Of a stretch of 24,000 nt of DNA, positions 1,920 to 24,000 are shown one piece after another. How positions within the stretch are numbered: position 1 is the stretch's first letter; the number at the start of each line of letters is the position of its first letter. Below the pieces are notes generated by a model that saw nothing but the letters and a program-made list of their open reading frames with translations, ran no database searches and was not told the origin of the DNA. The stretch comes from Desulfohalobiaceae bacterium (lineage in GTDB: Bacteria > Desulfobacterota > Desulfovibrionia > Desulfovibrionales > Desulfothermaceae): NCBI GenBank assembly GCA_021737085.1, contig JAIPEP010000009.1, positions 16,333 to 40,332 on the forward strand, given 5' to 3'. A program made the translations under genes and the position numbers.

Positions 1920-2115
1920 TGTCTGCGTTCCCTTTGCTCGCTGCGTCAAGCACTCGGAGGCTCAGGGTCCATCCCTGCTCTCAACAGCCTCACCCCTGAT
2001 GAAGATCTCTTTTCCTATCATGTAAGGCGCGAGAGGCACAAGCGTGCCTTGAGGCCCCCAAGCTGGATTTGTCCCCTCCTGCGAGTGCTATCTCCCGGGG
2101 TTGCACTGCAGTGAC

Positions 2116-2787: not shown

Positions 2788-2831
2788 ATGCTCCCCGCGA
2801 AGGATATAAAAGCAACGCGGGAAACGATGAT

Positions 2832-11196: not shown

Positions 11197-11248
11197 ACTG
11201 TTAGGCAAGGCCCAGCTTTTTAGTTTGGTCAGTCAGTTGACAAAAATG

Positions 11249-11277
11249 TTGAATAACGCTGCAGTTTCGGATAAAAT
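11249..11277 (+). promoter_or_regulatory. Putative sigma-70 promoter of the Mo-storage-like gene
   Basis: -35 TTGAAT (11249-11254), 17-nt spacer, -10 TAAAAT (11272-11277), in an AT-rich gap. Implies a leader of about 180 nt before the ATG at 11462. Confidence 0.35.
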
Positions 11278-11461
11278 TATATTAATCGCTGAATGAGTAA
11301 AATAACAACTGTAGCAATTATTAAGAGTGGCTTGACTTGCGGGTCCTCTCCGGAGCCGCATGCGCTGCAGGTGATCAGGGCCCTCCCTGTGTTTTCTGTT
11401 TCGTTGTGTCCGTTCCCAGGGGCGAGATGAAGAGCTGTCGAAAGAAATAACCCATGGGGAA

Positions 11462-12346
11462 ATGGTGGTTATGGCAAAGCTGGTAAAGGAAAAATCGGAA
11501 AAGGGCAGGCTGCATATTGATACGCCCATGATGGGAGAATCCCTGGTTAGCAAGGAGTTTCTGCGTCAGACCGAGTCCAGGGAATACTTCCGCATGCATC
11601 CGGATATCAATGTGCTCAAGATCGGGGGACAAAGCATAATGGATCGGGGGGGTGAGGCTATACGCCCCATCCTGGAAGTATTGAGGCAAGCGAAGGAGGA
11701 ATACAAGATACTGCTCATGACGGGAGGCGGCACCCGGGCCAGGCACGTCTATAACATCGGTGTGGATCTGGGCATGCCTACCGGGGTCTTGTCCAAGCTG
11801 GGGGACAAGGTGGCCTGGCAGAACGCGGAAATGCTTTCCGTGCTTCTTTCCAAGCACGGGGGGGTCAAAATCGACAATGGAGATAACCTGGAACAGCTGA
11901 CCATGTTCTGCCGCCTAGGCTATCTGCCCATCACTTACGGCATCCCTCCGTACGGGCTCTTTGAGCATCCTGCTGAATACGGTTCTATTCCCCCGCACAG
12001 AACGGATTGCGGAGCCTTTCTTCTGGCAGAGAACATTGGCGCCAGGCGGCTGATTTACCTTAAGGATGAGCAATGGCTCTATGAAAGCGATCCCAAAAAA
12101 ACGCCCGAGGAAGAGCGCAACAATATAAAACATTATGACCGTATTTCCGCCAGGGAACTGCAGGCCCTAGATCTGGATGACCTAATCATTGAGAGGCCGA
12201 TCGTGCATATGCTGCAGCGAGCCAAATGCATATCCGAACTACAGATTATCGACGCGCTTAACCATCCGGAACATATCCTCTCCGCTCTACAAGGGGACCA
12301 TGTAGGGACCATTATCTACAAGGACCAGGAAGAAGCCGAGGAGTAA
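11462..12346 (+). CDS. Amino-acid-kinase-fold protein resembling molybdenum storage protein subunits (MosA/MosB-like)
   Basis: VLKIGGQSIMDRGGEAI, LLMTGGGTRARHVYNIGVDLGMPTGVLSKLG, IPPHRTDCGAFLLAENIG and GDHVGTIIYK parallel remembered Azotobacter MoSto blocks (VIKIGGQSVIDRG; GTGAGTRARHLYSIAAGLGLPAGVLAQLG; PPYRTDAGCFLLAEQFG; GEHVGTII). An alternative start is ATG 11471. Confidence 0.7.
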   Translation: MVVMAKLVKEKSEKGRLHIDTPMMGESLVSKEFLRQTESREYFRMHPDINVLKIGGQSIMDRGGEAIRPILEVLRQAKEEYKILLMTGGGTRARHVYNIGVDLGMPTGVLSKLGDKVAWQNAEMLSVLLSKHGGVKIDNGDNLEQLTMFCRLGYLPITYGIPPYGLFEHPAEYGSIPPHRTDCGAFLLAENIGARRLIYLKDEQWLYESDPKKTPEEERNNIKHYDRISARELQALDLDDLIIERPIVHMLQRAKCISELQIIDALNHPEHILSALQGDHVGTIIYKDQEEAEE

Positions 12347-12349
12347 CTA

Positions 12350-12385
12350 CCGGCTTTCCCTCCTGGCAGCAGAAGGGAAAGCCGG
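12350..12385. terminator. Stem-loop between convergent genes (12-bp perfect stem)
   Basis: CCGGCTTTCCCT (12350-12361) pairs with AGGGAAAGCCGG (12374-12385) around a 12-nt loop, 3 nt after the stop. No U-tract. A second weaker stem is CTCAGGG/CCCTGAG at 12386-12417. Confidence 0.5.
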
Positions 12386-12494
12386 CTCAGGGGATTGGGC
12401 AGGAGCTCATCCCTGAGGTGCGAGCTAAAGGAAGGGGCGTCTGTGTGAACATACTTGAAGGCAGAAAGCATTCATTTCATTTTTCAGCCTGAAT

Positions 12495-12701
12495 TTAAGC
12501 ATGGATCTCTTTGCCCTTTTCAGCCTTGAGCTCAACAACCTCGGCTCCTATTTTTCCGGCCACCTGATCCACTTCCTGCCTACGGACATGATGGGCTCGG
12601 AACTGCAAATCAGCACCCGCTACAGCCACCACTCGAAATCTGGGTTTCTTTTCCCCTTTCTCCACTTTCTTACGTTCCCGGATAAAGATGATTGGGCTCA
12701 T
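12495..12701 (-). CDS. Small hypothetical protein (68 aa), weakly reminiscent of TOBE/Mop-type beta-barrel proteins
   Basis: Strong AGGAGG (complement of 12709-12714) lies 7 nt upstream of the ATG at 12701. The composition is charged and protein-like, unlike the overlapping + strand ORF. The C-terminal VDQVAGKIGAEVVELKAE loosely resembles the Mop/TOBE tail (VEELGVKEGAELTAVIKS), and the length equals that of clostridial Mop. The functional call is speculative. Confidence 0.5.
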   Translation of the reverse strand: MSPIIFIRERKKVEKGEKKPRFRVVAVAGADLQFRAHHVRRQEVDQVAGKIGAEVVELKAEKGKEIHA

Positions 12702-13041
12702 GATCGTCCTCCTGGATTAATATTTACGGAATCACCGTCCCCTCTAAACCGACACCACGGAAATTAGGATTGGCCTGCGCACAACCTGTCTGTTCCCTGG
12801 CTTTTTATGTCCTCGCTCCAGAACTATTCAATGGAATCCGCACCCACACCGCGGAACCAAGGCAGTCAGCAGGTTATTCAACTTCTGAAAATTAGTACTC
12901 GGGCCTTTGGCAAAACAACAGCTGAAAGATTGTGCCCCCTAGGAAGTCCAGTTCCTGTTTCCAGCTGGATCTTGTCCGCGTATCTTTTCGCAAGCGGTTT
13001 TTACTATAAAGAATATATATACTTTGAGGATATAGGTCAAG

Positions 13042-13413
13042 ATGGTAGATAAAGAAAATCCAAAAAATAGGCGTTCCGGTCCAGGTAAACCGGAACGCTA
13101 TATCCAGCCCTCCATCCTTTTGGCCTTGAGTGAGAGACACTCCCATGGGTACGAGCTGATCAAGACCATTCAGGAGTTTGGTTTCATTCAGGGTCAGGCA
13201 CCTCCCGGCATGGTCTATCGCCATCTGCGACAATTGGAGGAAGAGGGCCTCGTCAGCTCAACCTGGAATACGCAGGAAGGGGGCCCAGCCAAAAGGATAT
13301 ATCGGACTACTCTCGAGGGGGAGGAAGTTCTTCGGGCTTGGGTGGAATATATGAAAGGCCAGGCCGAGGCCTTGCAGAATTTCGTTCGGCGCTTTCAACA
13401 GCTGCGGGATTGA
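13042..13413 (+). CDS. PadR family transcriptional regulator
   Basis: Winged-helix PadR pattern: ILLALSERHSHGYELIKTI...GMVYRHLRQLEEEGLVSSTW......KRIYRTTLEGEEVL. Confidence 0.85.
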   Translation: MVDKENPKNRRSGPGKPERYIQPSILLALSERHSHGYELIKTIQEFGFIQGQAPPGMVYRHLRQLEEEGLVSSTWNTQEGGPAKRIYRTTLEGEEVLRAWVEYMKGQAEALQNFVRRFQQLRD

Positions 13414-13425
13414 AAGGAAGCGACA

Positions 13426-13457
13426 GGGATGCGGGGGTGTCCTAGGGCCCGCATCCC
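13426..13457. terminator. Stem-loop between convergent padR-like and TiaS-like genes (10-bp perfect GC-rich stem)
   Basis: GGGATGCGGG (13426-13435) pairs with CCCGCATCCC (13448-13457) around a 12-nt loop. No clear U-tract. Confidence 0.45.
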
Positions 13458-13516
13458 CGTGGTGGGATTGACAGAGGCAGGAAATCCTGCTGAGGAGGGC
13501 GGGATTGCCGTCCTCA

Positions 13517-14278
13517 CTAATTCGAGGCTGTTCCCCCTATCTCTGTGGTCATGGTGCCATGGGCTTTGTTGCGCTTTTGGCCCAGGGATGTCCATGAACC
13601 ATTTCTTCCCCGTAAGAGAGGCAGAACAGGCTTGTCTCCCCACAGCCTGGGACGGCACCAGTCATTGGTCTCCACTGTATCCTCCGGATCCGGCATTTCC
13701 GCATCCCTTTCTAAAGAAGTGACCAGGATATCCATCGCCGCCAAGTCCTTCACCTTCACGGTAGAGCCTATCTCGCGTAGTTTTCCGAATTCAATGAACC
13801 TCCCGTGCCATCCGGAATAGGTGAGCCCCACGCAGGCGGCTGCTCCGATAATCCCGTCGTTGGTTCCCCCGTGTCCGGAGAGATGCACCCGGGAGCCGCA
13901 CATTCGCATGGCCTCCTGCTGGCTGCTGATCCTGTTGCTGCATTTGGCGCCAAAATCGAGCAGCTCCGCAAGGCGGGGCTCATTCTCCCCTGCAGCACAG
14001 AGTCCGGGATCGCTTCCCGGCAGGGAATGGGCGAGTAAATGCTGGGTAGCCACCTGGATGAGCCTTTCCAGGATGCCCTCTGGGCCTTTGACCACCACAC
14101 AAGCGGCGCTGTTATGGGATGTATAAGGGATTCGGGAATCCCTGTTCAACTGCTGCCGGACAACCCCCCACAAGGAGCACTCCTGTGGCAGCGACCCTTC
14201 AAGCCAGCGGGCCAACTTGCCTGTACCCAGATTATCCTGTGCATTATCAGTATCGTCAATGCCGAGGTAATAGCGCAT
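13517..14278 (-). CDS. Protein resembling the N-terminal kinase (TCKD) domain of archaeal tRNA(Ile2) agmatidine synthetase TiaS
   Basis: MRYYLGIDDTDN..., RIPYTSHNSAACVVV, SDPGLCAAGE and GTNDGIIGAAACVG parallel remembered A. fulgidus TiaS blocks (MRVWVGIDDTDSS; IPYKTRGNGAVSFLV; TNPGAVFVDE; KGRGLIGALAAVG). At 253 aa it has no room for the OB-fold and zinc-ribbon tRNA-binding domains of TiaS. Confidence 0.55.
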   Translation of the reverse strand: MRYYLGIDDTDNAQDNLGTGKLARWLEGSLPQECSLWGVVRQQLNRDSRIPYTSHNSAACVVVKGPEGILERLIQVATQHLLAHSLPGSDPGLCAAGENEPRLAELLDFGAKCSNRISSQQEAMRMCGSRVHLSGHGGTNDGIIGAAACVGLTYSGWHGRFIEFGKLREIGSTVKVKDLAAMDILVTSLERDAEMPDPEDTVETNDWCRPRLWGDKPVLPLLRGRNGSWTSLGQKRNKAHGTMTTEIGGTASN

Positions 14279-14339
14279 CTTTTACCATGTCCTTTCTTTC
14301 TATAGTTCATAATCCTGATTACCTGCAGCGGAGGGTAGC

Positions 14340-14439
14340 CCCCTTTTTTCCCAAGAGGCTCAGGTTGATCAGGCCGAGCCTGGGTCTGTACGGTGGGACC
14401 TTTGTAAGAGCCGCCTCACAGCAGCCTCGGACCCCTGAT
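14340..14439 (+). pseudogene. Frameshifted remnant of the 5-prime part of a second family-5 substrate-binding-protein gene
   Basis: One frame reads PFFPQEAQVDQAEPG. After a 1-nt insertion the next frame reads LYGGTFVRAASQQPRT. Compare the intact SBP at about 4990-5100: KYPIPRDAEVSQAEPGRYGGVFVRAASQQPKTFNP. Differences are mostly synonymous. A second indel gives TAA at 14440-14442, after which similarity stops and AT-rich DNA begins. Confidence 0.6.
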
Positions 14440-14840
14440 TAAAGACCGTTTTATGGGCATTGGGATTAATGAAACTATTTGTTGTTTCCCCTGTGGTTTC
14501 AAAACCAGTGATCTATCCAAGGCCTAATGATTACGCTCCAGAGGGCGACCGGTGCACTTTTTAAAAGCTTAGTAAAAAAATGTCAAGTAAGGTCATTATA
14601 GTTTCATAAAATAAGTTTACTTGAAAATATGGTCTATTTATTACTAAGAATGACCTAAAATTACTAAGGTCTCAAAAAAGGTGTAACATTGGCGTTGGGA
14701 AGTCCACTCCTTTGGTAGCAGCGCCTAAAAGACCAGGATGATTGGCATAGTTGTCTGAGTGGGGGGTGCCTTAGAGGTGTTACTCGGCAGTAATCTTTAC
14801 TACTTTTTCTATGGGGAAAGGGAAAGCTTTTAATTAAGCA

Positions 14841-14893
14841 TTGACTTAACAAAAAAAGTAAGCTATCATTTAGTTTAGATTATTTGCTAAATG
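14841..14893 (+). promoter_or_regulatory. Putative sigma-70 promoter plus inverted repeat (candidate ArsR operator)
   Basis: -35 TTGACT (14841-14846), 17-nt spacer, -10 TATCAT (14864-14869). Inverted repeat CATTTAG (14867-14873) / CTAAATG (14887-14893) overlaps the -10 and the start region of the ArsR gene. Confidence 0.45.
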
Positions 14894-14901
14894 GATCGTC
14901 T

Positions 14902-15243
14902 ATGGCCTCAATGGAAACAATCGCCGCACTGAAGGCCCTGGCCCATGAGACCCGTTGGCGTATGATCGAGCTACTGCTGAGCCAGAGCCTTTGCGTGGGA
15001 GCCCTTGCCCGGACACTTGGGATCACCGAAGCAGCTACGTCCCAGCATTTGCAGGTCCTGCGCAAGGCAGCCCTGGTACGGGGGGAAAAGCGAGGCTACT
15101 GGACCCACTACCTGGTACAAACTGATGAGCTGAAGCGACTGGGAGAGGATCTCTGCCAGCTGCCGGAAAGGGCGGCCGGGCTCAGGGACTTGAATGCAGA
15201 GCTTTGTTCGGGATCCAGTCCAGAGGGCTCTTGTCAGGGATGA
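14902..15243 (+). CDS. ArsR/SmtB family transcriptional regulator
   Basis: LKALAHETRWRMIELLLSQSLCVGALARTLGITEAATSQHLQVLRKAALVRGEKRGYWTHY is a typical ArsR winged HTH. The ORF is open from TTG 14884. In-frame ATGs lie at 14902 and 14911. Cysteines sit in helix 2 (SLCVG) and in the C-terminal tail. Confidence 0.85.
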   Translation: MASMETIAALKALAHETRWRMIELLLSQSLCVGALARTLGITEAATSQHLQVLRKAALVRGEKRGYWTHYLVQTDELKRLGEDLCQLPERAAGLRDLNAELCSGSSPEGSCQG

Positions 15244-15314
15244 GAAGGACGGGGTGATTTTTCCAGATGAAGACTCTCACTATCTGAAGGGCCCTTGGCG
15301 GCTGACGAGTCGCT

Positions 15315-16064
15315 ATGCTTTTTATCGCTGCCCTGCTCATTGGCATTTTCCTGATCTCACTCACCCTCACCATGCTGGGCCTTGGAGGAGGGCTGATCTA
15401 TTCCCCGCTCTTCGCCCTGCTAGGGTTCGAGAAGGCCATGGTGGTGTCCACCTCGCTCTTCTTGAACCTGGTGGCCGCAGCCTCGGCCGCGGGGATCTAC
15501 ATGCGGCGGGGCATGGTGGACTACAGCGTGGCCCTGCCCTTGCTGGCCGCCGGCCTGAGCGCCCCCCTGGGAGCTCTTACCACGCACCGTATCGACACCC
15601 AGTCCTTTATCGCCATCCTGGCCATTGTCGTTCTCTTCGGAGCGGTGCGCATGCTCATATCGCCCCGTTCCGAGGGTGTGGCGGAATACGAGGGCACCTG
15701 GAAAAAAATCTGCGGCAGCGCCCTTATCGGTCTAGCCGTAGGATTCATTGCGGGTCTGGTGGGCATCGGGGGAGGGGTGTTCATCGTGCCCTTGCTCATC
15801 TACGCGCTCAAGATCCCCACCAAGACAGCGGCAGCCTCCAACACCTTCATCGTTTGCTTCTCCTCGCTCACCGGATTCGCCACCCATGCCTCCATCAGCA
15901 CCATAGACTGGCCCTTTGTGCTGCTAGCGGCGGTGTTCTCCTTCGCCGGTGGCCAAGCCGGATCGCGGCTCATGGCCGGCAAGCTACAGGGCAGAACGGT
16001 CCGTCTGCTTTTCGCTGTTGTGCTCTTTGTGATGAGCGGCAGGCTCCTGTACCAGGCCTTCTAG
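15315..16064 (+). CDS. TSUP (TauE/SafE, DUF81) family anion permease
   Basis: 249 aa and highly hydrophobic. The two-fold internal repeat has the family Gly-rich motifs (LGLGGGLIYSPLF and VGIGGGVFIVPLL). A stop at 15303-15305 fixes the start at ATG 15315. Confidence 0.85.
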   Translation: MLFIAALLIGIFLISLTLTMLGLGGGLIYSPLFALLGFEKAMVVSTSLFLNLVAAASAAGIYMRRGMVDYSVALPLLAAGLSAPLGALTTHRIDTQSFIAILAIVVLFGAVRMLISPRSEGVAEYEGTWKKICGSALIGLAVGFIAGLVGIGGGVFIVPLLIYALKIPTKTAAASNTFIVCFSSLTGFATHASISTIDWPFVLLAAVFSFAGGQAGSRLMAGKLQGRTVRLLFAVVLFVMSGRLLYQAF

Positions 16065-16217: not shown

Positions 16218-17588
16218 TTACGCGGAGCTGTTATTAAGCATCCCGTGCCGCCCCATCTTGGTGCGCAGTCGTTTCCGGGAAATGCCCAGCTCCCTGGCGG
16301 CAGCGCTCTGGTTTCCCTGGGTTCGCCGTAATGCCTGCTGTAGGAGTGCGCGCTCCATCTCCGGGAGGTTACACCCGTTAGCCCCTGCTCCTTCTGTATT
16401 CCCGCTTTTATCTGCGGTCAGGCGCTCCGGCAGACAGGAGGGGGTAACGGCATCCCCGCAGGCAAGGACCACCGCCCGCTCTATTACATTCTCTAGCTCC
16501 CGCACGTTGCCCGGCCAGTCATACCCGGTAAGAAGGTCCATCGCTTCTTGGCTTACGCCGCGCACAGCTGTATTGCAGCGAGGTGCGTACTTTTCCAGGA
16601 AGGCCTCCACCAGGCTGGGGATATCTTCCTTGCGCCGCCGCAGGGGTGGTACGTCGATGCGGATTACGTCCAGCCGGTAGTAGAGATCCTCACGCCAAGC
16701 CCCGCGGGAGATCTCCGCCTCCAGGTCCTTGTTCGTGGCCGCTATTATCCGAAGATCCACCCGGCGCAACCTGGTATCTCCCACTCTGACGAAGGCCTTC
16801 TCCTGAAGGAATCGCAGCATTTTTTTCTGCAGGAAAAGGGGCATCTCCCCGATTTCGTCCAGAAACAGCGTCCCACCGTGGGCCTGCTCGATCTGGCCCG
16901 CCTTGCTCCGGTCCGCACTGGTGAAGGCACCGCGAGCGTAGCCGAAGAGCTCGGACTCCAACAGATTCTCCGGGATAGCGGCACAGTCGATGGTTACCAG
17001 CGGGGCCTGCGGAGAATACCCCGCTCTGTGGATTGCCCTGGCCACCAACTCCTTGCCCGTTCCCGTTTCTCCGGTGATCAGGATATTGGAGCCGGAGCGG
17101 GCCACCCGGGGGACCAACTCGAAGATTTCCCGCATGGAGGCGCTTGTGCCCACTACAGTCTCCGATGGGGCAAAGCCGCGGCCGTCTCCGCTGGGAGCTC
17201 CTGCATGAGGTGGTGTCATTGCTGCGCCATCCAATAAAGAGCTGGCCTGTTTGACAACCTCCCTGAGATTCACTGGCTTGGTCAAATAGTCCGTGGCCCC
17301 CAGCTTCATTGCCTGTACCGCGTTACGGATGCTGCCTTGGGCGGTGGTCAGAATCACTGCGGTGTCCGGCAGGTGCTGCCGGATTCCCTCCAGAAGATCC
17401 ATTCCGTTCATTCCGGGAAGCTCGAGCTCGGCGAGGATCAGGTGCGGCTGCCTAGTCTGGATCAGGTGCCAGGCTTTTTTCCCCTCCCGGCAGGTATCCA
17501 CCTTGTAGCCCTCCTCTCTGAGCCTGGAGGACAGGGCTTGAAGAGTGTGCTCATCCCTGTCGGCGATGAGAATTGTTGTTTCCTTCAT
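16218..17588 (-). CDS. Sigma-54-dependent transcriptional activator (NtrC family: atypical receiver + AAA+ + Fis-type HTH)
   Basis: Walker A GETGTGKE, sigma-54 contact loop GAFTSA (a GAFTGA variant), ESELFGY, and C-terminal HTH QSAAARELGISRKRLRTKM. The receiver domain aligns residue for residue with NtrC but has E54 (GAG, 17427-17429) in place of D54 and R11 in place of D11. Confidence 0.9.
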   Translation of the reverse strand: MKETTILIADRDEHTLQALSSRLREEGYKVDTCREGKKAWHLIQTRQPHLILAELELPGMNGMDLLEGIRQHLPDTAVILTTAQGSIRNAVQAMKLGATDYLTKPVNLREVVKQASSLLDGAAMTPPHAGAPSGDGRGFAPSETVVGTSASMREIFELVPRVARSGSNILITGETGTGKELVARAIHRAGYSPQAPLVTIDCAAIPENLLESELFGYARGAFTSADRSKAGQIEQAHGGTLFLDEIGEMPLFLQKKMLRFLQEKAFVRVGDTRLRRVDLRIIAATNKDLEAEISRGAWREDLYYRLDVIRIDVPPLRRRKEDIPSLVEAFLEKYAPRCNTAVRGVSQEAMDLLTGYDWPGNVRELENVIERAVVLACGDAVTPSCLPERLTADKSGNTEGAGANGCNLPEMERALLQQALRRTQGNQSAAARELGISRKRLRTKMGRHGMLNNSSA

Positions 17589-17692
17589 TCCTCTCTCACC
17601 GGCCCTCTTTAGGTATTGCCATTATCACCAAAGGGGGGGCTACTACAGCTGTCCCCCTAGAGTTATCACTGGAGATATGTCTAGCATAGAAT

Positions 17693-17740
17693 TGTCCCAA
17701 ATGGAACACCCGGCCCCTTAGGGTTGTTCCGTAAGGAACA
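17693..17740. promoter_or_regulatory. Two related palindromic sites (TGTYCC-N4-GGAACA), candidate enhancer (UAS) for the sigma-54 activator
   Basis: Site 1 is TGTCCCAAATGGAACA (17693-17708). Site 2 is TGTTCCGTAAGGAACA (17725-17740, a perfect palindrome). Centres are 32 bp apart (about 3 helical turns) and lie roughly 85 and 118 bp upstream of the predicted transcription start of the -24/-12 promoter. Confidence 0.55.
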
Positions 17741-17792
17741 AGCAAGCAGAAGACTTGCTCCATAAGGCGGGACGCACACCCAGTCACGATAT

Positions 17793-17808
17793 TGGCAAGA
17801 AAATTGCT
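17793..17808 (+). promoter_or_regulatory. Sigma-54 (-24/-12) promoter
   Basis: TGGCAAGAAAATTGCT versus consensus TGGCACG-N4-TTGCW. GG and GC have the correct spacing and only one core mismatch (C to A). Points toward the TSUP-fusion gene and sits next to the divergent sigma-54 activator gene. Confidence 0.65.
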
Positions 17809-17991
17809 AATAAAACTTTGGTGCTTGTTCGTACATGTAATATTTGCATGGCGACAAGCTGGTTGACTGCGGCAATAGGGCTAACTCGGCAGGAGCAAAG
17901 GCTTCCCCGAGCATCATTTTGGGGTCTCCGCCTGCTAAGGAGCGGGGGCATTGCACTTATTATCAACCTGGAAACCGGCAAGGAGGATATT

Positions 17992-19701
17992 ATGCAATTC
18001 CATGCCCGCGGACTTTTGATCTGGATGGCTGCCGCGCTAATTCTGTCCTTGTCCCCAGCGGCACAAGCTCAACAGGCGATCCAGGCGGAGCTGGAGAAAC
18101 AGACTTACAAAGCCGGAGATACGGTGACCATCTCCGGACAGATCGAGCCTGGAGAGGATCTGTACATTGCGGTTTCCTCCAAGCGGACCTTCGCTCCCCA
18201 AGAGGCGAAAGGAGTAAACGAGAAGGACCAGCTTTTGGAGGCCGCTGCGACACATCCCTTCAGCAAGGACACCGAGGTGCCGGTATTCTACTACATGCTC
18301 ACCAACAGGCCGGGCGAGTTCGGATCCGTGGTCAAGGAGCGCTACGGCGGTCCTTCCTTTGCCAAGGGGATCTACAGCACCACCATGTTCGAGCTGGCCC
18401 AATGGCAGGATCTTTCTCCGCGGATCAAGGAAAAGTTGGGTCCGCTGGACAGCAGGCAGAAGTGGGACTTCTTCCGCTACACCCACGAGACGAACTACGG
18501 GATAAACACCATTACCAAGGAACGGACCCAGGTAGGCAAGATCACCATCTTCGCCCGCAGCGTGATTACCGACTACGAGAGAAGCGGCAATTACTGGGAC
18601 AAGGGGACGGATATCGAGCTTAACAAGGAGACCGGCGAATTCACCGCTACCTTTGACACCTTCCGCCACACCCCTCCGGACACCGAGTTCCAGGTCGCGG
18701 TCAACGGGGAAAAGATTGGCGAATACACCCTGGCCGGGAACGGTTTTTGGCTCCCTCTCGGAGGGCGCTATATGAATCCCCTCTGGATCATCCTCGGGGC
18801 CATACTGGTGGGCGCCTTCTTCTCCCTTATCGGCGCTGCCGGAGGTATGCTCATGGCCGCGTACCAGGTCATGGTGGTCAACACCATGGGGCCCGTGGGT
18901 CTCAATGCGGCCAACGTCCTGCGCCCCTCCAACGTGGCCCTGACCCTGTTCTCCCCCATAGGGTCCTTCTACCGCTACGCGATCAAGGAGCACCGCGTCT
19001 GCTGGCCAGTGGGGCTCTCCTTCGGCATCGGCATCCTGGTGGGCTCCATCTGGCTGGGAAAGTACGTGACTCAGCTCCTGCCCCTGGCTACATACAAGGA
19101 GTGGCTGGCCGTTCTTGTGGTGCTCATGGGCATCCGCACCCTGTACGAGCTCACCCCACGGGTCATGGAAAAACGCAAGAACATCAAGGCCATGACCCAG
19201 AAGTTCAATGCGGAGGTGCAAAAGGCCAAAGAAGAGGGCCGGGCCGCGGAGATGGGCCGTATCGAGCCCATCACCCACGGAGCGAGCAAGCTCACCACCT
19301 ACCGCTTCAAGTTCTGGGGTGAGGAGTTCAAGATCAATCCCCTGCTTTTCGGGATCATCGGCCTGGGCATCGGGATCGTGGCCCGGTGCTTCGGCATCGG
19401 CGGCGGCTTCCTGCTGACCCCGATCATGACCATGATTGGCGCCCTGCCCATGTACGTGGCGGTGCCGGTATCCCTGGTGGGCACCAGCTTCTCCAGCATC
19501 GGCTCCTTTATCGGGTACCTCATAAACGGATATCTGCCGGACTTCTGGATCGCCCTGGCCATTGTCATCGGCGGCTTCGTGGGTGGCTACATCGGCAGCC
19601 GCATGCAGAAGGTCTTTACCGAGGTCCAGCTCAAGATCATCCTGGCGGTGGTGCTCTTCTTCCTCTTCTTCCGTTTCTTCAAGATCGAGGTCTGGATCTA
19701 G
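17992..19701 (+). CDS. TSUP (TauE/SafE) family permease fused to an N-terminal periplasmic domain of about 230 aa of unknown function
   Basis: AGGAGG (17981-17986) lies 5 nt before ATG 17992. Signal peptide MQFHARGLLIWMAAALILSLSPAAQA. A soluble region runs to about residue 260. A TSUP membrane domain follows, with GAAGGMLMAAY and FGIGGGFLLTPIM motifs and a charged central loop of about 55 aa. The ORF extension back to 17755 lacks coding character. Confidence 0.8.
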   Translation: MQFHARGLLIWMAAALILSLSPAAQAQQAIQAELEKQTYKAGDTVTISGQIEPGEDLYIAVSSKRTFAPQEAKGVNEKDQLLEAAATHPFSKDTEVPVFYYMLTNRPGEFGSVVKERYGGPSFAKGIYSTTMFELAQWQDLSPRIKEKLGPLDSRQKWDFFRYTHETNYGINTITKERTQVGKITIFARSVITDYERSGNYWDKGTDIELNKETGEFTATFDTFRHTPPDTEFQVAVNGEKIGEYTLAGNGFWLPLGGRYMNPLWIILGAILVGAFFSLIGAAGGMLMAAYQVMVVNTMGPVGLNAANVLRPSNVALTLFSPIGSFYRYAIKEHRVCWPVGLSFGIGILVGSIWLGKYVTQLLPLATYKEWLAVLVVLMGIRTLYELTPRVMEKRKNIKAMTQKFNAEVQKAKEEGRAAEMGRIEPITHGASKLTTYRFKFWGEEFKINPLLFGIIGLGIGIVARCFGIGGGFLLTPIMTMIGALPMYVAVPVSLVGTSFSSIGSFIGYLINGYLPDFWIALAIVIGGFVGGYIGSRMQKVFTEVQLKIILAVVLFFLFFRFFKIEVWI

Positions 19702-19716
19702 CGGGCCAATGGCCAC

Positions 19717-19752
19717 AAGTGGGCCGGGTTGGCTCATGCCCCCGGCCCGCTT
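19717..19752 (+). terminator. GC-rich stem-loop after the TSUP-fusion gene (possible terminator, attenuator or processing site)
   Basis: AAGTGGGCCGGG (19717-19728) pairs with CCCGGCCCGCTT (19741-19752), giving 12 bp including one G-U, around a 12-nt loop. No U-tract. Confidence 0.35.
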
Positions 19753-19852
19753 GTCAAACCAGGCAAGGAGAAAGGTTAGGCCCTGGGGCGAGAGCCCTCT
19801 GTGGCTGCGATTTTAAGCAACTGCGAAACCGTTTTCCGCAAGAAGGATCGTC

Positions 19853-20473
19853 ATGGATACCCTGTGGCTTTACATCCTGGAAATCATAGAGCATATCCGG
19901 ATGGGCCTGGACTTCGCCTTTCAGCCCCTGGAGGCCCTGGGACCCACAGCCGCGGTCACCGGAATGGCCTTGGCGACCATGCTGGTGGCCAAAACCCTGA
20001 CGGAGAATTTCAAGACCAAGCGCTACAAAAGGCTGCAGAGCGAATTCGACTACTGGTACCGGCTGCGGCAGGAGGCCATGCGCTACAAGGGCGATGATCC
20101 GGATAAGGCAAAGGGGCTGGCCAAGGACCTGGACAAGGGCAAGCTGAACGAGCTCTACTACAACTATTTCATCGAGGGGCTCTTGAACAATCTGCTCACC
20201 CTTTACATCCCCGTATTCTCCATGCTGACCTACGTGAACAACACCTACGATCCGGCGGGCCTCCGGGAGCGCTTCGGTAGTGAATACCTTTTCTCTGTCA
20301 CCCTGGGAGGTAGGACCTACGAGATGGGCGCGATCTTCTGGTTCCTTCTCATTTTGGTCGCCTCCTATATCCTCTGGGTCGTGCTGCGCAAAAGGTTTTT
20401 CCCTTCCCGAAACACAAACCACGGAATAGAGCGGGACGCGGATGTGCCGGCTCAAGCCGGACAGTCCCAGTAG
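19853..20473 (+). CDS. Hypothetical membrane protein (3 predicted TM segments with a Lys/Asp-rich amphipathic linker)
   Basis: GAAGGA (19841-19846) lies 6 nt before the ATG. TM1 is AAVTGMALATMLVAKTL. The charged helix region is KRYKRLQSEFDYWYRLRQEAMRYKGDDPDKAKGLAKDLDKGKLNE. Two further hydrophobic segments follow. The antisense 330-aa ORF is Arg-rich junk. Confidence 0.6.
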   Translation: MDTLWLYILEIIEHIRMGLDFAFQPLEALGPTAAVTGMALATMLVAKTLTENFKTKRYKRLQSEFDYWYRLRQEAMRYKGDDPDKAKGLAKDLDKGKLNELYYNYFIEGLLNNLLTLYIPVFSMLTYVNNTYDPAGLRERFGSEYLFSVTLGGRTYEMGAIFWFLLILVASYILWVVLRKRFFPSRNTNHGIERDADVPAQAGQSQ

Positions 20474-20489
20474 CACGGGGAGAAGGACC

Positions 20490-20906
20490 ATGCCGCTTAG
20501 AAGCATCGTGGATTGGCTGGATGTTTTGCTGCCCAACTGGTTCGCCTTCGCTTCGGGCCTCCTGCTGGCCCTTTTCGGGCTTATCGCCCTGGGCCTCCTG
20601 GTCCTCGGCCTCGCACCGGCGAGCCTGCGAATCTGGCTGCCGCTTTTTGCCTTCTTTGCGGCGGTCAACGGGGGATACACCCTATGGCGGCGGCGCGTCC
20701 GGGGCGGGACAGAGTTGACAGCCCTTTCTTTGGCCCTGGGGCTCATCCTGGGAGGCGTCGCCTACTGGATGCAGCTACTTGTGGATCAGCGGCTTTTTGC
20801 TTCCGCCACACCGGTCCCCTATCTTTTCCTTTTCCTGGGGGCCTCCCTCGCCGGCCTGGGGATCGGTATTCCCCTCCGGCTGAAATACGAAAAGTCTCGG
20901 AGCTGA
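20490..20906 (+). CDS. Hypothetical small integral membrane protein (about 4 TM)
   Basis: ATG 20490 is preceded by GGGGAGAAGGA and lies 16 nt after the upstream stop. The 138 aa are almost entirely hydrophobic (FAFASGLLLALFGLIALGLLVLGL...). Confidence 0.6.
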   Translation: MPLRSIVDWLDVLLPNWFAFASGLLLALFGLIALGLLVLGLAPASLRIWLPLFAFFAAVNGGYTLWRRRVRGGTELTALSLALGLILGGVAYWMQLLVDQRLFASATPVPYLFLFLGASLAGLGIGIPLRLKYEKSRS

Positions 20907-20999
20907 GCTCTCCCTGCCGATCCGCCTGACACCGGGCGCTTCCCACCCGAGAAGGAACCGGCGGGTCTGTCAAGCGAACCAACCCTCAGGAGTTATTCC

Positions 21000-23093
21000 A
21001 TGGATAAGGAAGTCTACACCCAATGCTTCATGTGCTCCATCCGGTGTCCCATCAAGGTAACCGTGGAGAATGGCGAGGTGTCCTTCATCGAGGGCAACCC
21101 CCATGTTTCCGGAATGGAGGGGAGCCTTTGCCCCAAAGGAGCTGCCGGCAAGGCCCTTGTGGACGATTCCCAGCGGGTGCAGGGCCCCATGATCCGCACC
21201 GGCCCCAGGGGATCGGGGCAGTGGCGGCGCGCCTCCTGGGAGGAGGCCCTGGATTATGTTGCCCATCGGCTCAAGACGATTACCGATCAGTATGGCGGTA
21301 AGAGCGTGGCCCTGACTGAGCGGGCCCAGCTGAGCACCCACGTGAGCAAGACCTTTCTCCGGGCCCTGGGCTCGCCAAACTACCTATCCCACGATGCCCT
21401 TTGCAAGGGCTCCATGAACACGGCCTGCCGCTCCCTGTTCGGATACACCGACGGACAGATCGGCATGGACTATTCCAACACGCGGCATCTGGTCCTCTAC
21501 GGACGGAATATCTTCGAGTCCATCCAGGTGAAACCGGTGCGCCAGATAGTGGAGGCCATGAATCGCGGGGCCAAGCTGACCTATATCGATCCCCGGGTCA
21601 CGGTCACCGCATCCAAGGCCCACCGCTACTGGATGATCAGGCCAGGCACAGATCTGGCCCTGAACTACGCCCTGATGCACGTTATCTTCGAGGAACGCCT
21701 CTTTGACGCGAATTTCTTGGAGCGGTGGGTAACGGGCCTGAACGAGCTCCGGAGCTTTGTCAGTTCCTACACCCCGGAGTGGGCCGCGGAGGAGACCGGC
21801 ATTCCCGCGGAGGAGATCGTGCGCTTCGCCAGGGAGCTCGGCAGGGACAAGCCCAGGGTCATCTTTCACATGGGCTATCGCGGGGCGCACCAGGTCAATG
21901 AGATCCATCTCCGGCGCTCCATTCTTTTGCTCAACGTGCTCATGGGCAGCGTGGAAACGCCCGGGGGTATCTTCATCAAGAAGGGCCCCGGAGTGGCGGG
22001 AGGCAAGCCCGCCCGCAAGCTCACGGAGCAGGAGGGCCTGCCCAAGCCGGAGGCGCCGCGCCTGGACAAGGTGGGCACTCCGGAGTTTCCCCTGCCAGAT
22101 CCCAATCACGGGGCCCCTCAGATGCTGCCCCGCGCCGTGCTGAACCAGGAGCCCTATCCGGTCAAGGCCTTGTTCGCCTTCCGCTTCGATCCGCTCATGT
22201 CCATGCCTGACACGAACGAAACCAAACAAGCTCTGGAAGAGCTGGACCTGGTGGTCAGCATCGACATTCAGCACAGCGATATCGCCTGGTACTCGGATGT
22301 CGTTCTTCCCGAGTCCACCTATCTGGAGCGCATGGACAGCCCCCAGCAGGCAAACAGCCTCAAGCCCCAGATCTTTCTCAGGCAGCAGACCCTCAGCCCG
22401 CGCTACGACACCCTTCCCGGGCCTATCATCCTTCGGGAGCTGGCTCGTCGTCTGGGCCTGGAGCAGTATTTTCCCTACAGCTCCATGGAGGAGCTCGTAC
22501 GCTGGCAGCTGGAGCCCACCGGCTTCACCCTGGAGGACTTCCGCGCCAAGGGATTCTTGGCTTACACGGACAAGCAGCACTTCTGGGACCGGGAGAGCGG
22601 CCTGGCTTTTAAAACCCCCTCGGGCAAGATAGAATGTGTTTCCTCCCTGCTGGAGGATGCGGGCTTCTCCTCCTTCCCGCCTTATGAATCCCCGGAGTCA
22701 GGGGAGAGCCCGGAGCGCTTCCGCATGGTGGTGGGGCGCTGTGCCCAGCATACGCACGTCTCCACCCAGAACAATCCCTATTTGAACGAGCTCGTTCCGG
22801 AGAACACGCTCTGGATCAATCAGCGGGCCGCAGGGGAGTTGGGAATTAAGGACGGTGATCTTGTTCGGATTTCCTCAGATCAGCATTCCGGCAGTATCCG
22901 GGCCAAGGTTACGGAGTTCATCCATCCGGAGTGCGTTTTCCTCCTGCACGGTTTCGGGCACGAGTCCCAGCTCGCGGAGCGTTCGTTTAACAAAGGGGTC
23001 TCCGATGCCGCCCTGATGAAGAACGTGAGCGATCCCGTCGGCGGCAGCCCCGGGCTGCACGAGACCTTCGTCACTGTGCGACCACTGCCCTAG
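21000..23093 (+). CDS. Molybdopterin (Mo/W-bisPGD) oxidoreductase catalytic subunit, PsrA/PhsA/acetylene-hydratase-like, without Tat signal
   Basis: N-terminal [4Fe-4S] motif C9-x2-C12-x3-C16-x27-C44 starts at residue 9, so there is no twin-arginine leader. The candidate metal-ligand Cys lies in SHDALCKGSMNTA. Typical MopB blocks are present (LVLYGRNIFES, TYIDPRVTVTASKA, RPGTDLAL), plus a C-terminal beta-barrel domain (LWINQRAAGELGIKDGDLVRISS). RBS CAGGAG at 20988-20993. Confidence 0.88.
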   Translation: MDKEVYTQCFMCSIRCPIKVTVENGEVSFIEGNPHVSGMEGSLCPKGAAGKALVDDSQRVQGPMIRTGPRGSGQWRRASWEEALDYVAHRLKTITDQYGGKSVALTERAQLSTHVSKTFLRALGSPNYLSHDALCKGSMNTACRSLFGYTDGQIGMDYSNTRHLVLYGRNIFESIQVKPVRQIVEAMNRGAKLTYIDPRVTVTASKAHRYWMIRPGTDLALNYALMHVIFEERLFDANFLERWVTGLNELRSFVSSYTPEWAAEETGIPAEEIVRFARELGRDKPRVIFHMGYRGAHQVNEIHLRRSILLLNVLMGSVETPGGIFIKKGPGVAGGKPARKLTEQEGLPKPEAPRLDKVGTPEFPLPDPNHGAPQMLPRAVLNQEPYPVKALFAFRFDPLMSMPDTNETKQALEELDLVVSIDIQHSDIAWYSDVVLPESTYLERMDSPQQANSLKPQIFLRQQTLSPRYDTLPGPIILRELARRLGLEQYFPYSSMEELVRWQLEPTGFTLEDFRAKGFLAYTDKQHFWDRESGLAFKTPSGKIECVSSLLEDAGFSSFPPYESPESGESPERFRMVVGRCAQHTHVSTQNNPYLNELVPENTLWINQRAAGELGIKDGDLVRISSDQHSGSIRAKVTEFIHPECVFLLHGFGHESQLAERSFNKGVSDAALMKNVSDPVGGSPGLHETFVTVRPLP

Positions 23094-23165
23094 GCTGGCT
23101 CGAAGCAAAGTCACGGCAAGCCGGATCCGGGTAAATCGGGGATTTTCAACCCAGGAGCACAACAA

Positions 23166-23681
23166 ATGAGCCAATATATGCTTTTCCATGACCAGAAGAA
23201 CTGTATCGGGTGCGAGGCCTGTGTCGTGGCCTGCAAAACGCGGCAGAAACTTCCGCAGGGTCCGCTTCCCACTCTCGTGGTGGCTGTGGGACCCAGGTGG
23301 ACAGGGGATCAGCCCAGAACAGTCTTCACCTTCATGCCCTGCTTCCACTGTGAGGTTCCCTGGTGCGTGGCCGCCTGTCCCACCGGGGCGATGCAGAAGC
23401 GCTCCGGGGACGGGGTGGTTTCCGTGGATCCCGAGCTCTGCGTGGGCTGCAAGACCTGCATGGCAGCCTGTCCCTGGGGGGCCCCGCAGTGGAATCCGGT
23501 CACGGGCAAGGTGGTCAAGTGCGATCTGTGCAAGGATCGGATCGACGCAGGGTTGAAACCCACCTGCGCCACGGTGTGCGTCACGCAGTGCATCCATTTC
23601 GGGCCTCCAGAAGAGATGTCGGAGATCCGGCGGGAGCGCTACGCCCGCACCAAGGCCGAGGGACAGTTCGATCCGGAATGA
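23166..23681 (+). CDS. Four-cluster [4Fe-4S] ferredoxin subunit (PsrB/DmsB/NrfC-like)
   Basis: Cys groups CIGCEACVVAC, CFHCEVPWCVAACP, CVGCKTCMAACP and CDLC...CATVCVTQC. AGGAG (23153-23157) lies 8 nt before the ATG. Confidence 0.88.
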   Translation: MSQYMLFHDQKNCIGCEACVVACKTRQKLPQGPLPTLVVAVGPRWTGDQPRTVFTFMPCFHCEVPWCVAACPTGAMQKRSGDGVVSVDPELCVGCKTCMAACPWGAPQWNPVTGKVVKCDLCKDRIDAGLKPTCATVCVTQCIHFGPPEEMSEIRRERYARTKAEGQFDPE

Positions 23682-23700
23682 TTCAGCTGGGGGCAGAGTC

Positions 23701-24000
23701 ATGAATCAAGCGCAATGCCAGGTTCTGGCCACCTATCAGTGGCTCGGCGACCAGTTGGACTCCGGTGCGGTGACCCATCCCCGCTGCAGGCGGATCGGGC
23801 GGGATATACAGGAGATCCTCCGGGACATCATAGACAGCCGGGCAGGGGAAGAGCACATGGACAGCCTGCGCTCCATGGCCCGGGAGCTGGCCGAGAAGGG
23901 CGAGGACGCGGAGTGCGTGAATCTGGGAAAGACCCTCTCCCAGCGGTTTGAGAACCATCTGGAGGAATTCCTGGGGCACATCAGGAGCCGGAACTGTCCC
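23701..24000 (+). CDS. N-terminal part of a protein with a NuoF-C-terminal-like helical Fe-S-binding-region domain (continues past window end)
   Basis: Open frame from ATG 23701 to the window end (100 codons), 19 nt after the ferredoxin stop. HPRCRRIGRDIQEILRDIIDSRAGEEHMDSLRSMARELAEKGEDAECVNLGKTLSQRFENHLEEFLGHI follows the pattern of the NuoF N3-cluster domain (C..C..G....IL..I..G.G...D...L..L......C.LG.........F..EF..HI) but keeps only some of the Cys ligands. Confidence 0.45.
   Translation, partial: MNQAQCQVLATYQWLGDQLDSGAVTHPRCRRIGRDIQEILRDIIDSRAGEEHMDSLRSMARELAEKGEDAECVNLGKTLSQRFENHLEEFLGHIRSRNCP

Follow-up and report, generated by a model that had tools for sequence, protein, structure and literature searches.

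A sigma-54-linked gene cluster joining a TSUP permease to a Tat-less Psr/Phs-type molybdoenzyme in sulfate-reducing Desulfobacterota: a candidate cytoplasmic thiosulfate or polysulfide reductase

Thiosulfate serves most sulfate reducers as a substrate, and many can disproportionate it, but the enzyme that splits it inside the cell has never been firmly assigned, and in recent papers proteins of the "PhsAB-like" kind are still given as uncharacterized. A 24,000-nucleotide stretch from a Desulfohalobiaceae bacterium (assembly GCA_021737085.1, contig JAIPEP010000009.1, positions 16,333 to 40,332; the whole stretch is called the window here, and all unlabeled coordinates refer to it) raises this question in a specific form: what is the role of a Psr/Phs-type molybdoenzyme that carries no export leader, has no membrane anchor gene beside it, and lies behind a TSUP/TauE-family permease gene with a sigma-54 promoter element? 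An initial annotation of the window had read positions 16218 to 24000 as a sigma-54-controlled locus linking the permease to a cytoplasmic enzyme, a combination for which it knew no characterized system. The analysis reported here suggests that the locus is probably an inducible two-component/sigma-54 operon that handles an inorganic sulfur anion inside the cell, with thiosulfate reduction as the most likely reaction. The cluster is widespread, uncharacterized, and experimentally tractable, and it makes a good candidate for the cytoplasmic reductase of thiosulfate (or polysulfide) that has long been sought.

The identity of the catalytic subunit is central to this question. The 697-aa protein encoded at 21000 to 23093 on the plus strand is a molybdenum- or tungsten-bis(pyranopterin guanine dinucleotide) (Mo/W-bisPGD) protein of the MopB type, with the Pfam domains Molybdop_Fe4S4 (residues 3 to 54), Molybdopterin, and Molydop_binding, and with cluster residues C9, C12, C16, and C44 that do not vary across the family alignment. 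Among proteins of solved structure, its best match is Thermus thermophilus PsrA (PDB 2vpw; E value of 1.8e-124, 35% identity). The protein begins MDKEVYTQCFMC, directly at the Fe4S4 motif, and the alignment opens at PsrA residue 38; therefore, it has no twin-arginine translocation (Tat) leader, as had been proposed. Its Cys135 aligns with the Mo ligand of PsrA, Cys173 in 2vpw, and is invariant in 12 family members. Among family models, NCBIfam PhsA (NF012032) scored highest at 592.9 bits, with Fdh, DmsA, ArrA, TtrA, and others at 260 at most, and Thermus PsrA itself reached 479.5 bits on the same PhsA model, below the window enzyme. In comparisons with characterized clades, the enzyme was thus closest to PsrA and PhsA.

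The initial annotation had called this protein PsrA/acetylene-hydratase-like, and only the first half of that description stands. The score against PsrA was 420 bits, and that against acetylene hydratase (PDB 2e7z) was 217 bits. Asp13 of acetylene hydratase is catalytic; the SCDINC stretch that contains it aligns with MCSIRC of the window enzyme, where Asp13 becomes Ser13, a residue nearly invariant in the family. With half the score of PsrA and this replacement, an acetylene hydratase identity was rejected. Because PsrA and PhsA are its best matches, the enzyme is assigned by profile and alignment to the PsrA/PhsA/SrrA lineage, whose substrates are polysulfide, thiosulfate, or selenite and whose members are listed as periplasmic (PMC10100899). 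The exact protein sequence had no database record, and the closest contigs, from metagenome-assembled genomes (MAGs) of Desulfohalobiaceae, encode proteins of 90 to 91% identity.

The genes that follow indicate where the electrons could come from. Directly downstream (23166 to 23681, plus strand) lies the gene for a 171-aa four-[4Fe-4S] ferredoxin subunit of the PsrB/DmsB type, identified by Pfam Fer4_11 (4.9e-24) among other models and by four Cys motifs; its NCBIfam DmsB score of 147.8 bits is under the cut-off of 214. The next reading frame (23701 to 24000, plus strand) is cut at the window end after its first 100 codons, and its nature was taken from an orthologue on a Desulfohalobiaceae MAG contig (L001) that encodes a 91% identical catalytic subunit, has the same gene order, and runs past the window end. 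The counterpart there is a 722-aa protein with Fer4_20 and Pyr_redox_2 domains and a C-terminal di-cluster (2x[4Fe-4S]) domain, which matches NfnA (9bov_A, 4e-121), StnC (8oh5_C, 1e-103), and NfnB (4ylf_B, 6e-91). Its core is therefore of the NfnL/GltD-type 2x[4Fe-4S]-FAD-NAD(P)H kind, and the flavoprotein also scored 352 bits against E. coli YgfK, which belongs to a putative selenate reductase. The first ~110 residues gave no match in a Pfam search and weak but consistent top matches (E of 0.011 to 0.37) to the four-helix-bundle region of NuoF-like BfuB/HydB, with residues ~450 to 540 of 9bov_B/HydB matched at E of 0.011 to 0.04. The earlier label of this gene product as a NuoF-C-terminal-like protein thus describes a real but weak resemblance (best E of 0.011) of one domain, the N-terminus, whereas the full-length product is a flavoprotein of ~722 aa.

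Beyond the flavoprotein, L001 encodes a 71-aa protein, a 247-aa Fer2_4/Fer4 protein, and a rubrerythrin. Along its entire length, the 247-aa protein aligns with WorA (9mqx_A, 7e-42), the NuoG-like BfuA subunit of a bifurcating tungsten aldehyde oxidoreductase (PMC12318220). The 71-aa protein (L001 15051 to 15266, and orthologues) is soluble and highly conserved, with the pattern …GQ+V…DESW…ITDPD…NDPDALIEVS…GTHRFPQDCLR; 13 of 14 sequences compared have just one Cys, close to the C-terminus. A role as a small subunit or as a sulfur carrier is conceivable. No member of the NrfD/PsrC family was present among the called genes with Pfam matches in the window, L001, L002, L087, and L088, which agrees with the earlier statement that an anchor gene is absent. 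Taken together with the missing Tat leader, partners consisting of a ferredoxin, a flavoprotein, and a NuoG-like Fe-S protein also bear out the view of a cytoplasmic enzyme with soluble redox partners.

How general this arrangement is was assessed in a set of 80 non-redundant related loci (numbered from L001), in which genes were counted by tblastn and the denominators are the loci with enough flanking sequence. Relatives of the catalytic subunit amounted to 2653 proteins at E <= 1e-50, of which the 120 listed were all 686 to 709 aa long. A pattern scan with one genome per species placed them in at least 437 species, nearly all of them sulfate reducers of the Desulfobacterota, with 67 to 74% family identity across those species; the cultured hosts are Desulfovermiculus halophilus, Desulfosarcina widdelii, D. 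alkanivorans, Desulfacinum hydrothermale, and Desulfoferrobacter suflitae. Downstream of the catalytic gene, the ferredoxin was present in 75/76 loci, the flavoprotein in 62/65, the 71-aa protein in 52/58, and the NuoG-like protein in 46/48, and the order MopB–ferredoxin–flavoprotein–71-aa protein–NuoG-like protein is nearly invariant. Apart from the TSUP protein, no recurrent polytopic protein was found in the 80 loci.

A longer form of the module occurs in 11 of the 80 loci (L017, L022, L024, L033, L052, L059, L061, L065, L067, L079, and L081), where a NuoE-like gene follows the ferredoxin gene and, in 9 of the 11, a NuoF-like gene is present too. The NuoF-like protein has an FMN domain together with SLBB, NADH_4Fe-4S, and Fer4 domains, and the NuoE- and NuoF-like proteins correspond by homology to BfuC and BfuB. 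With the NuoG-like and NfnL-like proteins included, the long form, as read from these homologies, is the full parts list of the Bfu-type enzymes NfnABC/StnABC. One long-form locus, L079, carries two tandem MopB-ferredoxin pairs.

The second part of the question is whether the permease belongs with the enzyme. A TSUP/TauE gene lies within 3.6 kb upstream of the MopB gene in 42/57 loci, with 11 same-strand and 31 divergent cases; 14 of these 42 genes are of the long DUF8269 type seen in the window, and 28 are of a distant short type. While the enzyme module itself is nearly invariant across relatives, the permease has thus stayed upstream of it in two orientations and with two TSUP subtypes, and the proposed link between transporter and molybdoenzyme gains further from a re-pairing in Desulfohalobium retbaense. 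In this organism (L084 10001 to 16699, CP001734), an orthologous TSUP protein (75% identity) and both small membrane proteins that accompany it in the window are followed by a DUF169 protein and then by a 936-aa Tat-less MopB protein, which is 29% identical to the window enzyme and carries a fused TorD/NarJ-like N-terminal domain; this locus has no ferredoxin or flavoprotein gene. The complete window arrangement recurs in D. halophilus (L088), where the divergent genes encode the activator, a Cache-domain kinase, and a protein carrying two PhnD-like domains. In L081 and L087, genes of the enzyme alternate with those for the transporter, kinase, and activator.

Two further loci vary the theme. 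In L087, from a 7.85-Mb genome, the genes for the ferredoxin, flavoprotein, a 68-aa protein, a CBS protein, the NuoG-like protein, TSUP, kinase, and activator are all co-linear, and the place expected for the MopB gene (L087 1650 to 3700) held no long open reading frame (ORF) and no tblastn match, a gap that may reflect gene loss by deletion or decay, or else faulty assembly. In Desulfohalovibrio reitneri (L086 1 to 9689), the TSUP cassette comes directly after a four-cluster ferredoxin gene, whose product is 51% identical to that of the window, and a run of Mrp/Nuo-type antiporter-subunit genes; there is no MopB gene within 8 kb of the cassette. This ferredoxin/antiporter neighborhood recalls the PhsAB-nuo adjacency of Desulfolithobacter dissulfuricans.

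The permease itself (17992 to 19701, plus strand; 569 aa) is a clear TauE-family member (Pfam TauE, 2.4e-31; 109.7 bits against a cut-off of 32.6). Its start is the ATG at 17992, after a GGAGGA ribosome-binding site, and the mechanical ORF opens at 17755. The protein consists of a signal peptide, a ~230-aa N-terminal periplasmic beta-sandwich domain (DUF8269), and the TauE membrane domain, and precomputed matches gave DUF8269 plus TauE on all 120 homologues listed. In the AlphaFold2 model, the N-terminal domain is beta-rich with pLDDT mostly 84 to 94, and a Foldseek search of the model against the PDB had no match below an E of 0.09; what it returned were generic Ig-like and transporter folds, which offer no hint of the substrate. 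Characterized TSUP members transport oxyanions and sulfonates, and the family is plentiful in sulfate reducers without an assigned function (PMC5840216). Marietou's TSUP "clade B" protein (Dret_2118, a proposed sulfate importer) seems to be a different gene, since its locus-tag number suggests a place in the D. retbaense genome away from the orthologue of the window permease.

Two small membrane proteins follow the permease. The 206-aa protein (19853 to 20473, plus strand) is a TSUP companion, retained at 30 to 77% identity beside the long TSUP type and remotely homologous to a 191-aa protein beside the short TauE (hhalign probability of 91.8%, E of 7e-7), so that both TSUP types are trailed by homologous versions of one small membrane protein. 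The source annotation quoted for such a protein in another organism is "transmembrane protein co-occurring with TauE/SafE" (PMC13490349). The 206-aa sequence runs from a hydrophobic segment through a long charged helix to more hydrophobic segments, and its orthologue in D. halophilus (L088 9933 to 10583) gave a weak Pfam match to EMC3_TMCO1 (DUF106/Oxa1 superfamily). The 138-aa protein (20490 to 20906, plus strand), with about four hydrophobic segments by hydropathy, is retained at 30 to 79% identity in nearer relatives only (L001, L005, L009, L010, L012, L084, and L088). The TSUP N-terminal domain and the 206-aa, 138-aa, and 71-aa proteins had no significant family match even at E <= 10.

The initial annotation had proposed sigma-54 control on the basis of one promoter element and a divergent activator gene. 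The gene layout it described, six plus-strand genes with gaps of 151, 16, 93, 72, and 19 nt and the activator gene on the opposite strand, was reproduced from the ORF coordinates. The element TGGCAAGAAAATTGCT (17793 to 17808, plus strand) is the sole exact match to TGGCA-N6-TTGCW in the 24 kb, where 0.07 matches are expected per window and 7 of 100 shuffles gave one; it has the GG-N10-GC spacing of a -24/-12 element, fits TGGCAC-N5-TTGCW, and has the right intergenic position and orientation. When the intergenic region was aligned with those of L001, L005, and L088, TTGGCA...AAATTGCT was unchanged across the four taxa, and the ribosome-binding region was likewise conserved. The activator (16218 to 17588, minus strand; 456 aa) is an NtrC-type response regulator with receiver, AAA+, and Fis-type helix-turn-helix domains (Pfam Sigma54_activat, 2.6e-67; Response_reg; HTH_8), and orthologues with 54 to 77% identity occupy the same divergent position in L001, L005, and L088. 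Between the two divergent genes lie the palindromes TGTCCCAAATGGAACA (17693 to 17708) and TGTTCCGTAAGGAACA (17725 to 17740), of the form TGTTCC-N4-GGAACA, 32 nt apart, which precede the -24 element by ~85 and 53 nt. Both are conserved in the alignment columns of L001, L005, and L088. The motif occurs in pairs or triplets upstream of TSUP in L001 and D. retbaense, with three copies preceding the D. retbaense gene (L084 9722 to 9801) and a sigma-54-like site at L084 9854 to 9869. From their repetition and conservation, the two palindromes are probably activator-binding sites.

The strongest evidence for a shared regulon is the pattern of promoter sites over the locus set, obtained in one scan for near-consensus sites against a background density of 0.055 per kb and strand. 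With a divergent TSUP gene, a site driving TSUP was found in 32/35 loci and sites before both TSUP and MopB in 28/35, those on the MopB side mostly 70 to 150 nt before the ATG. In co-linear loci of the window type, a site precedes TSUP in 8/12 and MopB in 0/12; the window itself has no second site before the MopB gene or the 206-aa gene. Among loci without a divergent TSUP nearby, 18/25 also have no sigma-54 site. Because the sites are paired when the genes are divergent and absent before MopB when they are co-linear, transporter and enzyme appear to form one sigma-54 regulon, which in the window arrangement would be read from a single promoter. The earlier proposal of sigma-54 control is supported by the conserved promoter, the two conserved palindromes, the divergent activator, and the paired sites in relatives.

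There is no histidine kinase gene in the window. Among the relatives, a homologous kinase gene occurs in 28 loci, and kinase and activator are encoded together with TSUP in ~25; in Desulfosarcina-type loci, a PAS histidine kinase and a sigma-54 response regulator come after the short TauE gene, and the common kinase carries PAS domains. L088 (2895 to 7684) and L008 (204 to 3388) encode a Cache_3-HAMP kinase and a 540-aa protein with two PhnD-like (PF12974) domains, a domain type also used by the thiosulfate sensor ThsS and the tetrathionate sensor TtrS (PMC5408782). As a general clue to the inducer, this sensor was dropped, because it is confined to two loci and most others use a PAS kinase.

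Between the permease gene and the small membrane protein genes lies a GC-rich hairpin (19715 to 19754, plus strand), 14 nt past the TSUP stop codon, with a regional folding free energy of -67 kcal/mol (z of -2.4). Hairpins of unrelated sequence stand at the same place after TSUP in L001, L005, and L084. The structure may cause partial termination or attenuation, or it may stabilize the transporter transcript. Co-transcription of the TSUP cassette and the enzyme genes is probable, judging by the arrangement of genes and promoter sites. An Rfam scan of 14 to 24 kb found no family, which excluded a known riboswitch in the 170-nt leader.

Taken together, these observations suggest the following course of events. 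The response regulator would bind the two upstream palindromes and activate the -24/-12 promoter at 17793 to 17808, and transcription would cross the TSUP gene and those of its two small membrane partners and probably continue into the enzyme genes, possibly attenuated at the hairpin. The TSUP protein would move the anion across the membrane, with substrate import favored and product export possible, and the soluble Psr/Phs-type Mo/W-bisPGD subunit with its Cys ligand would act on the anion in the cytoplasm. Electrons would pass between the catalytic subunit, the four-cluster ferredoxin, and the NfnL/DsrL-like FAD flavoprotein that is predicted to bind NAD(P)H, with the 71-aa protein and the NuoG-N-terminal-like [2Fe-2S]/[4Fe-4S] protein assisting the exchange. 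In this scheme, the soluble flavoprotein module would stand in for the quinol-oxidizing PsrC/NrfD anchor of the respiratory enzymes. The reaction would most likely be the reductive cleavage of thiosulfate to sulfite and sulfide, with polysulfide or persulfide reduction as the next likeliest.

Thiosulfate is preferred for the following reasons: (i) the window enzyme is nearer to the PhsA profile than PsrA is (592.9 versus 479.5 bits); (ii) the thiosulfate couple lies at about -400 mV, near that of H+/H2, which gives a reason for a low-potential Nfn/Bfu-type module; (iii) the hosts use thiosulfate; and (iv) the sole proteomic hint points the same way. In that work, on Dissulfuribacter thermophilus, Tat-less and PhsC-less PhsAB-like subunits were among the most increased proteins during thiosulfate disproportionation, and a TauE protein and its co-occurring membrane protein also rose (PMC13490349). 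Since the partners are built from Nfn/Bfu parts and NuoE/NuoF-like subunits accompany them in 11/80 loci, an input of NAD(P)H together with reduced ferredoxin is plausible by analogy. A more specific version, in which a catalytically live Psr/Phs-type subunit wired to NfnL-, NuoG-, and (in long-form loci) NuoE/NuoF-type modules makes up a flavin-based confurcating (or bifurcating) thiosulfate or polysulfide reductase that uses NAD(P)H and reduced ferredoxin jointly to drive the -400 mV cleavage and is fed by a TSUP importer, is put forward tentatively and on analogy; we consider it rather doubtful.

The surroundings of the cluster contain two genes whose membership in the system is uncertain: an ArsR/SmtB-type regulator (14884 to 15243, plus strand) and a second, plain TauE permease of 249 aa (15315 to 16064, plus strand), both assigned by Pfam/NCBIfam. 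Of the relatives, only the closest two, L001 and L004, retain this pair (14884 to 16064). A single Cys occupies the usual metal site of the regulator, which also has several C-terminal Cys and weak matches to the BigR and TsoR models. Further upstream, G+C content falls to 0.47 to 0.55 at 11000 to 15000 from ~0.60 to 0.63 elsewhere, and a 253-aa ORF in this stretch (13517 to 14278, minus strand) had no family match; because the gene content upstream of the ArsR gene differs from that of L001, the stretch may mark a seam left by rearrangement or by the acquisition of DNA. The remainder of the window appears unrelated, with genes for a CDF transporter, LexA/UmuD-like and UmuC-like proteins, an Opp/Dpp-type ABC transporter, and an amino-acid kinase. 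Among these, a LexA/CI-like S24 peptidase repressor, a UmuD-like protein, and a UmuC-like Y-family polymerase (2161 to 4509) form an SOS-mutagenesis-type cassette, which the CDF cation-efflux gene (897 to 1949, minus strand) adjoins. Long antisense ORFs at 18037 to 19737 (566 aa) and 19754 to 20746 (330 aa), both on the minus strand, overlie the TSUP and small-protein genes; they are low in complexity and rich in charge, as is typical of spurious frames opposite real genes in GC-rich DNA.

Other readings of the same genes have to be weighed against thiosulfate reduction. The architecture could serve a cytoplasmic reductase of polysulfide, persulfide, or elemental sulfur, similar to psrA2B2 and supplied by NAD(P)H, with the TSUP protein importing polysulfide or exporting sulfide or sulfite. 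The best solved relative is indeed the Thermus polysulfide reductase PsrA, and the archaeal sulfur reductase cannot be told apart from the Psr/Phs lineage (PMC10100899). In Sulfurimonas and Sulfurovum, S8 reduction has been linked to cytoplasmic psrA2B2 (PMC10045233), and the conserved C-terminal Cys of the 71-aa protein (13/14 sequences) could carry a persulfide. However, the window enzyme outscores a genuine PsrA on the enterobacterial PhsA profile (592.9 versus 479.5 bits), a couple at ~-260 mV requires no low-potential or bifurcating module, and characterized TSUP proteins carry oxyanions and sulfonates rather than polysulfide (PMC5840216); we therefore regard this reading as possible but unlikely. 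Alternatively, the enzyme could run oxidatively, as a soluble sulfite dehydrogenase resembling SoeAB without SoeC that reduces NAD(P)+ and/or ferredoxin in the course of disproportionation or detoxification, with TauE exporting sulfate or sulfite. SoeA is likewise cytoplasmic and Tat-less, TauE names a sulfite exporter family, the sulfate/sulfite couple (-516 mV) could drive the reduction of NAD(P)+ and ferredoxin through an Nfn-like module, and the nearby ArsR regulator is weakly similar to the sulfite sensor BigR. Yet SoeA groups with bacterial SreA and apart from PsrA/PhsA/SrrA (PMC10100899), the best matches of the window enzyme are PhsA and PsrA, and the hosts already possess Apr/Sat for the sulfite-sulfate step, which makes sulfite oxidation quite improbable.

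A different substrate within the same lineage, such as tetrathionate, selenite, selenate, or arsenate, would turn the cluster into a cytoplasmic detoxification or respiration-support operon. The selenite reductase SrrA belongs to this lineage (PMC10100899), a Psr homologue is reported to respire tetrathionate in Shewanella ANA-3 (PMC12949373), and the PhnD-like sensor type also senses tetrathionate (PMC5408782); the likeness of the flavoprotein to YgfK of a putative selenate reductase (352 bits) and the ArsR-family gene nearby could be read in the same direction. But an identity of 67 to 74% over at least 437 sulfate-reducer species fits a core sulfur function better than niche detoxification, high-potential acceptors require no Nfn/Bfu-type module, and the ArsR-TauE pair is not conserved, so that such a substrate seems very improbable. 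It is also conceivable, if most improbable among the explanations considered, that cassette and enzyme module are functionally unrelated neighbors that share a type of regulator, the window then holding two transcription units. This would account for the loci in which the enzyme has no TSUP gene (14/57), for the D. reitneri cassette without a MopB gene within 8 kb, for the hairpin after TSUP, and for D. thermophilus, where the TauE pair and PhsAB are ~37 genes apart by locus tags. Chance neighborhood is nevertheless hard to reconcile with adjacency retained in 42/57 loci through inversions and with two TSUP subtypes, with paired sigma-54 promoters in 28/35 divergent loci and none before MopB in the 12 co-linear ones, with the re-association of the D. 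retbaense cassette with a different cytoplasmic MopB protein, or with the interleaved genes of L081 and L087.

Several observations weigh against a sigma-54-controlled, transporter-fed thiosulfate reductase and temper our preference for it. No TSUP gene was found nearby in 14/57 loci, which mostly also have no sigma-54 site, so the enzyme can work without this transporter and regulator. The stem with a T-run after TSUP in D. halophilus resembles a canonical terminator at which the transcript may end, and the PhnD-like protein stands beside the kinase in only two loci (L088 and L008). The score of 592.9 bits is below the PhsA equivalog cut-off of 694, with model positions 1 to 40 (the Tat leader) unmatched, and the N-terminal domain of the permease has no informative fold match. 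NuoE/NuoF-like genes are absent from the closest relatives, L001 and L088; therefore, for the window type, confurcation is an analogy only. Finally, the window enzyme was likened to the D. thermophilus and D. dissulfuricans proteins by description and not by sequence, the D. dissulfuricans PhsAB genes adjoin nuo genes with no flavoprotein, and no PhsAB has been functionally analyzed according to the authors of that study (PMC9751629).

The consequences reach beyond this locus. With a defined transporter, regulator, and electron-input module and with cultured strains at hand, the question of the intracellular enzyme becomes directly testable. Metagenomic counts of psrA/phsA (K08352), usually read as periplasmic respiration, would here cover an enzyme of the cytoplasm that is linked to pyridine nucleotides. 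The TSUP family, still poorly understood, would gain a concrete functional context, as would its DUF8269 domain and the co-occurring small membrane protein. The Nfn/Bfu parts may have a new partner module here, which hints at how the vestigial MopB domain of NfnA/StnC arose, and a confurcating reductase, if real, would be a new class of Bfu/Nfn-related enzyme and the living counterpart of that dead domain.

Compared with known systems, the enzyme shares with PsrABC/PhsABC (Thermus, PDB 2vpw; Salmonella PhsABC) the MopB lineage, the FS0 motif, the Cys ligand to Mo, and a four-cluster ferredoxin partner encoded immediately downstream in both. PsrABC and PhsABC have a Tat leader, a quinol-oxidizing PsrC/NrfD anchor, and a periplasmic active site, whereas the window system has no Tat leader and no anchor gene, its active site is predicted to be cytoplasmic, and its electron partner appears to be a soluble NfnL-like flavoprotein instead. 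Acetylene hydratase of Pelobacter acetylenicus (2e7z) is also a cytoplasmic, Tat-less, Cys-ligated MopB protein related to Psr/Phs, but it is non-redox and stands alone, whereas the window enzyme comes with conserved electron-transfer partners. DsrL, an NfnB-like NAD(P)H oxidoreductase, connects the pyridine nucleotide pool with a sulfur enzyme of the cytoplasm. Its domain plan of 2x[4Fe-4S], an FAD/NAD(P)H part, and a ferredoxin domain at the C-terminus is similar to that of the flavoprotein; it is not known to have a NuoF-like N-terminus or a NuoG-like partner, and it serves the siroheme enzyme DsrAB, not a molybdoenzyme.

Also close are the cytoplasmic "PhsAB-like"/psrA2B2 enzymes, Tat-less Psr/Phs homologues of the AB-only type with ~700 and 170 aa, like those of the window. 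The named set consists of DITHS69_2027/2028 of D. thermophilus, PhsA-1/PhsB-1 of D. dissulfuricans, and psrA2B2 of Sulfurimonas/Sulfurovum; the D. dissulfuricans proteins have 701 aa (PhsA) and 168 aa (PhsB) (PMC9751629), and anchor-less psrA2B2 is reported in Campylobacterota (PMC10045233). The papers on these enzymes describe no flavoprotein/NuoG-like module, TSUP adjacency, or sigma-54 control, and neither the flavoprotein wiring nor the TSUP/sigma-54 link of a cytoplasmic PhsAB/PsrAB was found in the literature searched. The statement in the initial annotation that no characterized system has this gene combination thus needs no change beyond these omics-level mentions of PhsAB-like and psrA2B2 proteins. 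Cytoplasmic PhsAB/PsrAB was already known at that level, and what is added here is the predicted flavoprotein wiring and the predicted TSUP/sigma-54 link.

For the electron-input side, the closest counterparts are the Bfu-type enzymes NfnABC/StnABC (9bov, 8oh5), whose NfnA/StnC NfnL-like domain is the closest match to the core of the window-type flavoprotein. The flavoprotein N-terminus resembles the four-helix bundle of BfuB, the 247-aa protein matches WorA/BfuA, and in WorABCSL (9mqx) a pterin-containing catalytic subunit and a poly-ferredoxin subunit are likewise attached. The terms "polysulfide," "thiosulfate," "molybdopterin," and "DMSO" are all absent from the 2022 Bfu classification (PMC9304861). 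Unlike the Bfu enzymes, the window type has no NuoE/NuoF-like subunits, and its parts are separate polypeptides. The A subunit of NfnABC/StnABC ends in a cofactor-less Fdh/MopB-like domain that has been called an evolutionary remnant (PMC11829005), whereas the MopB protein of the window, judging by its conserved motifs, looks catalytically intact.

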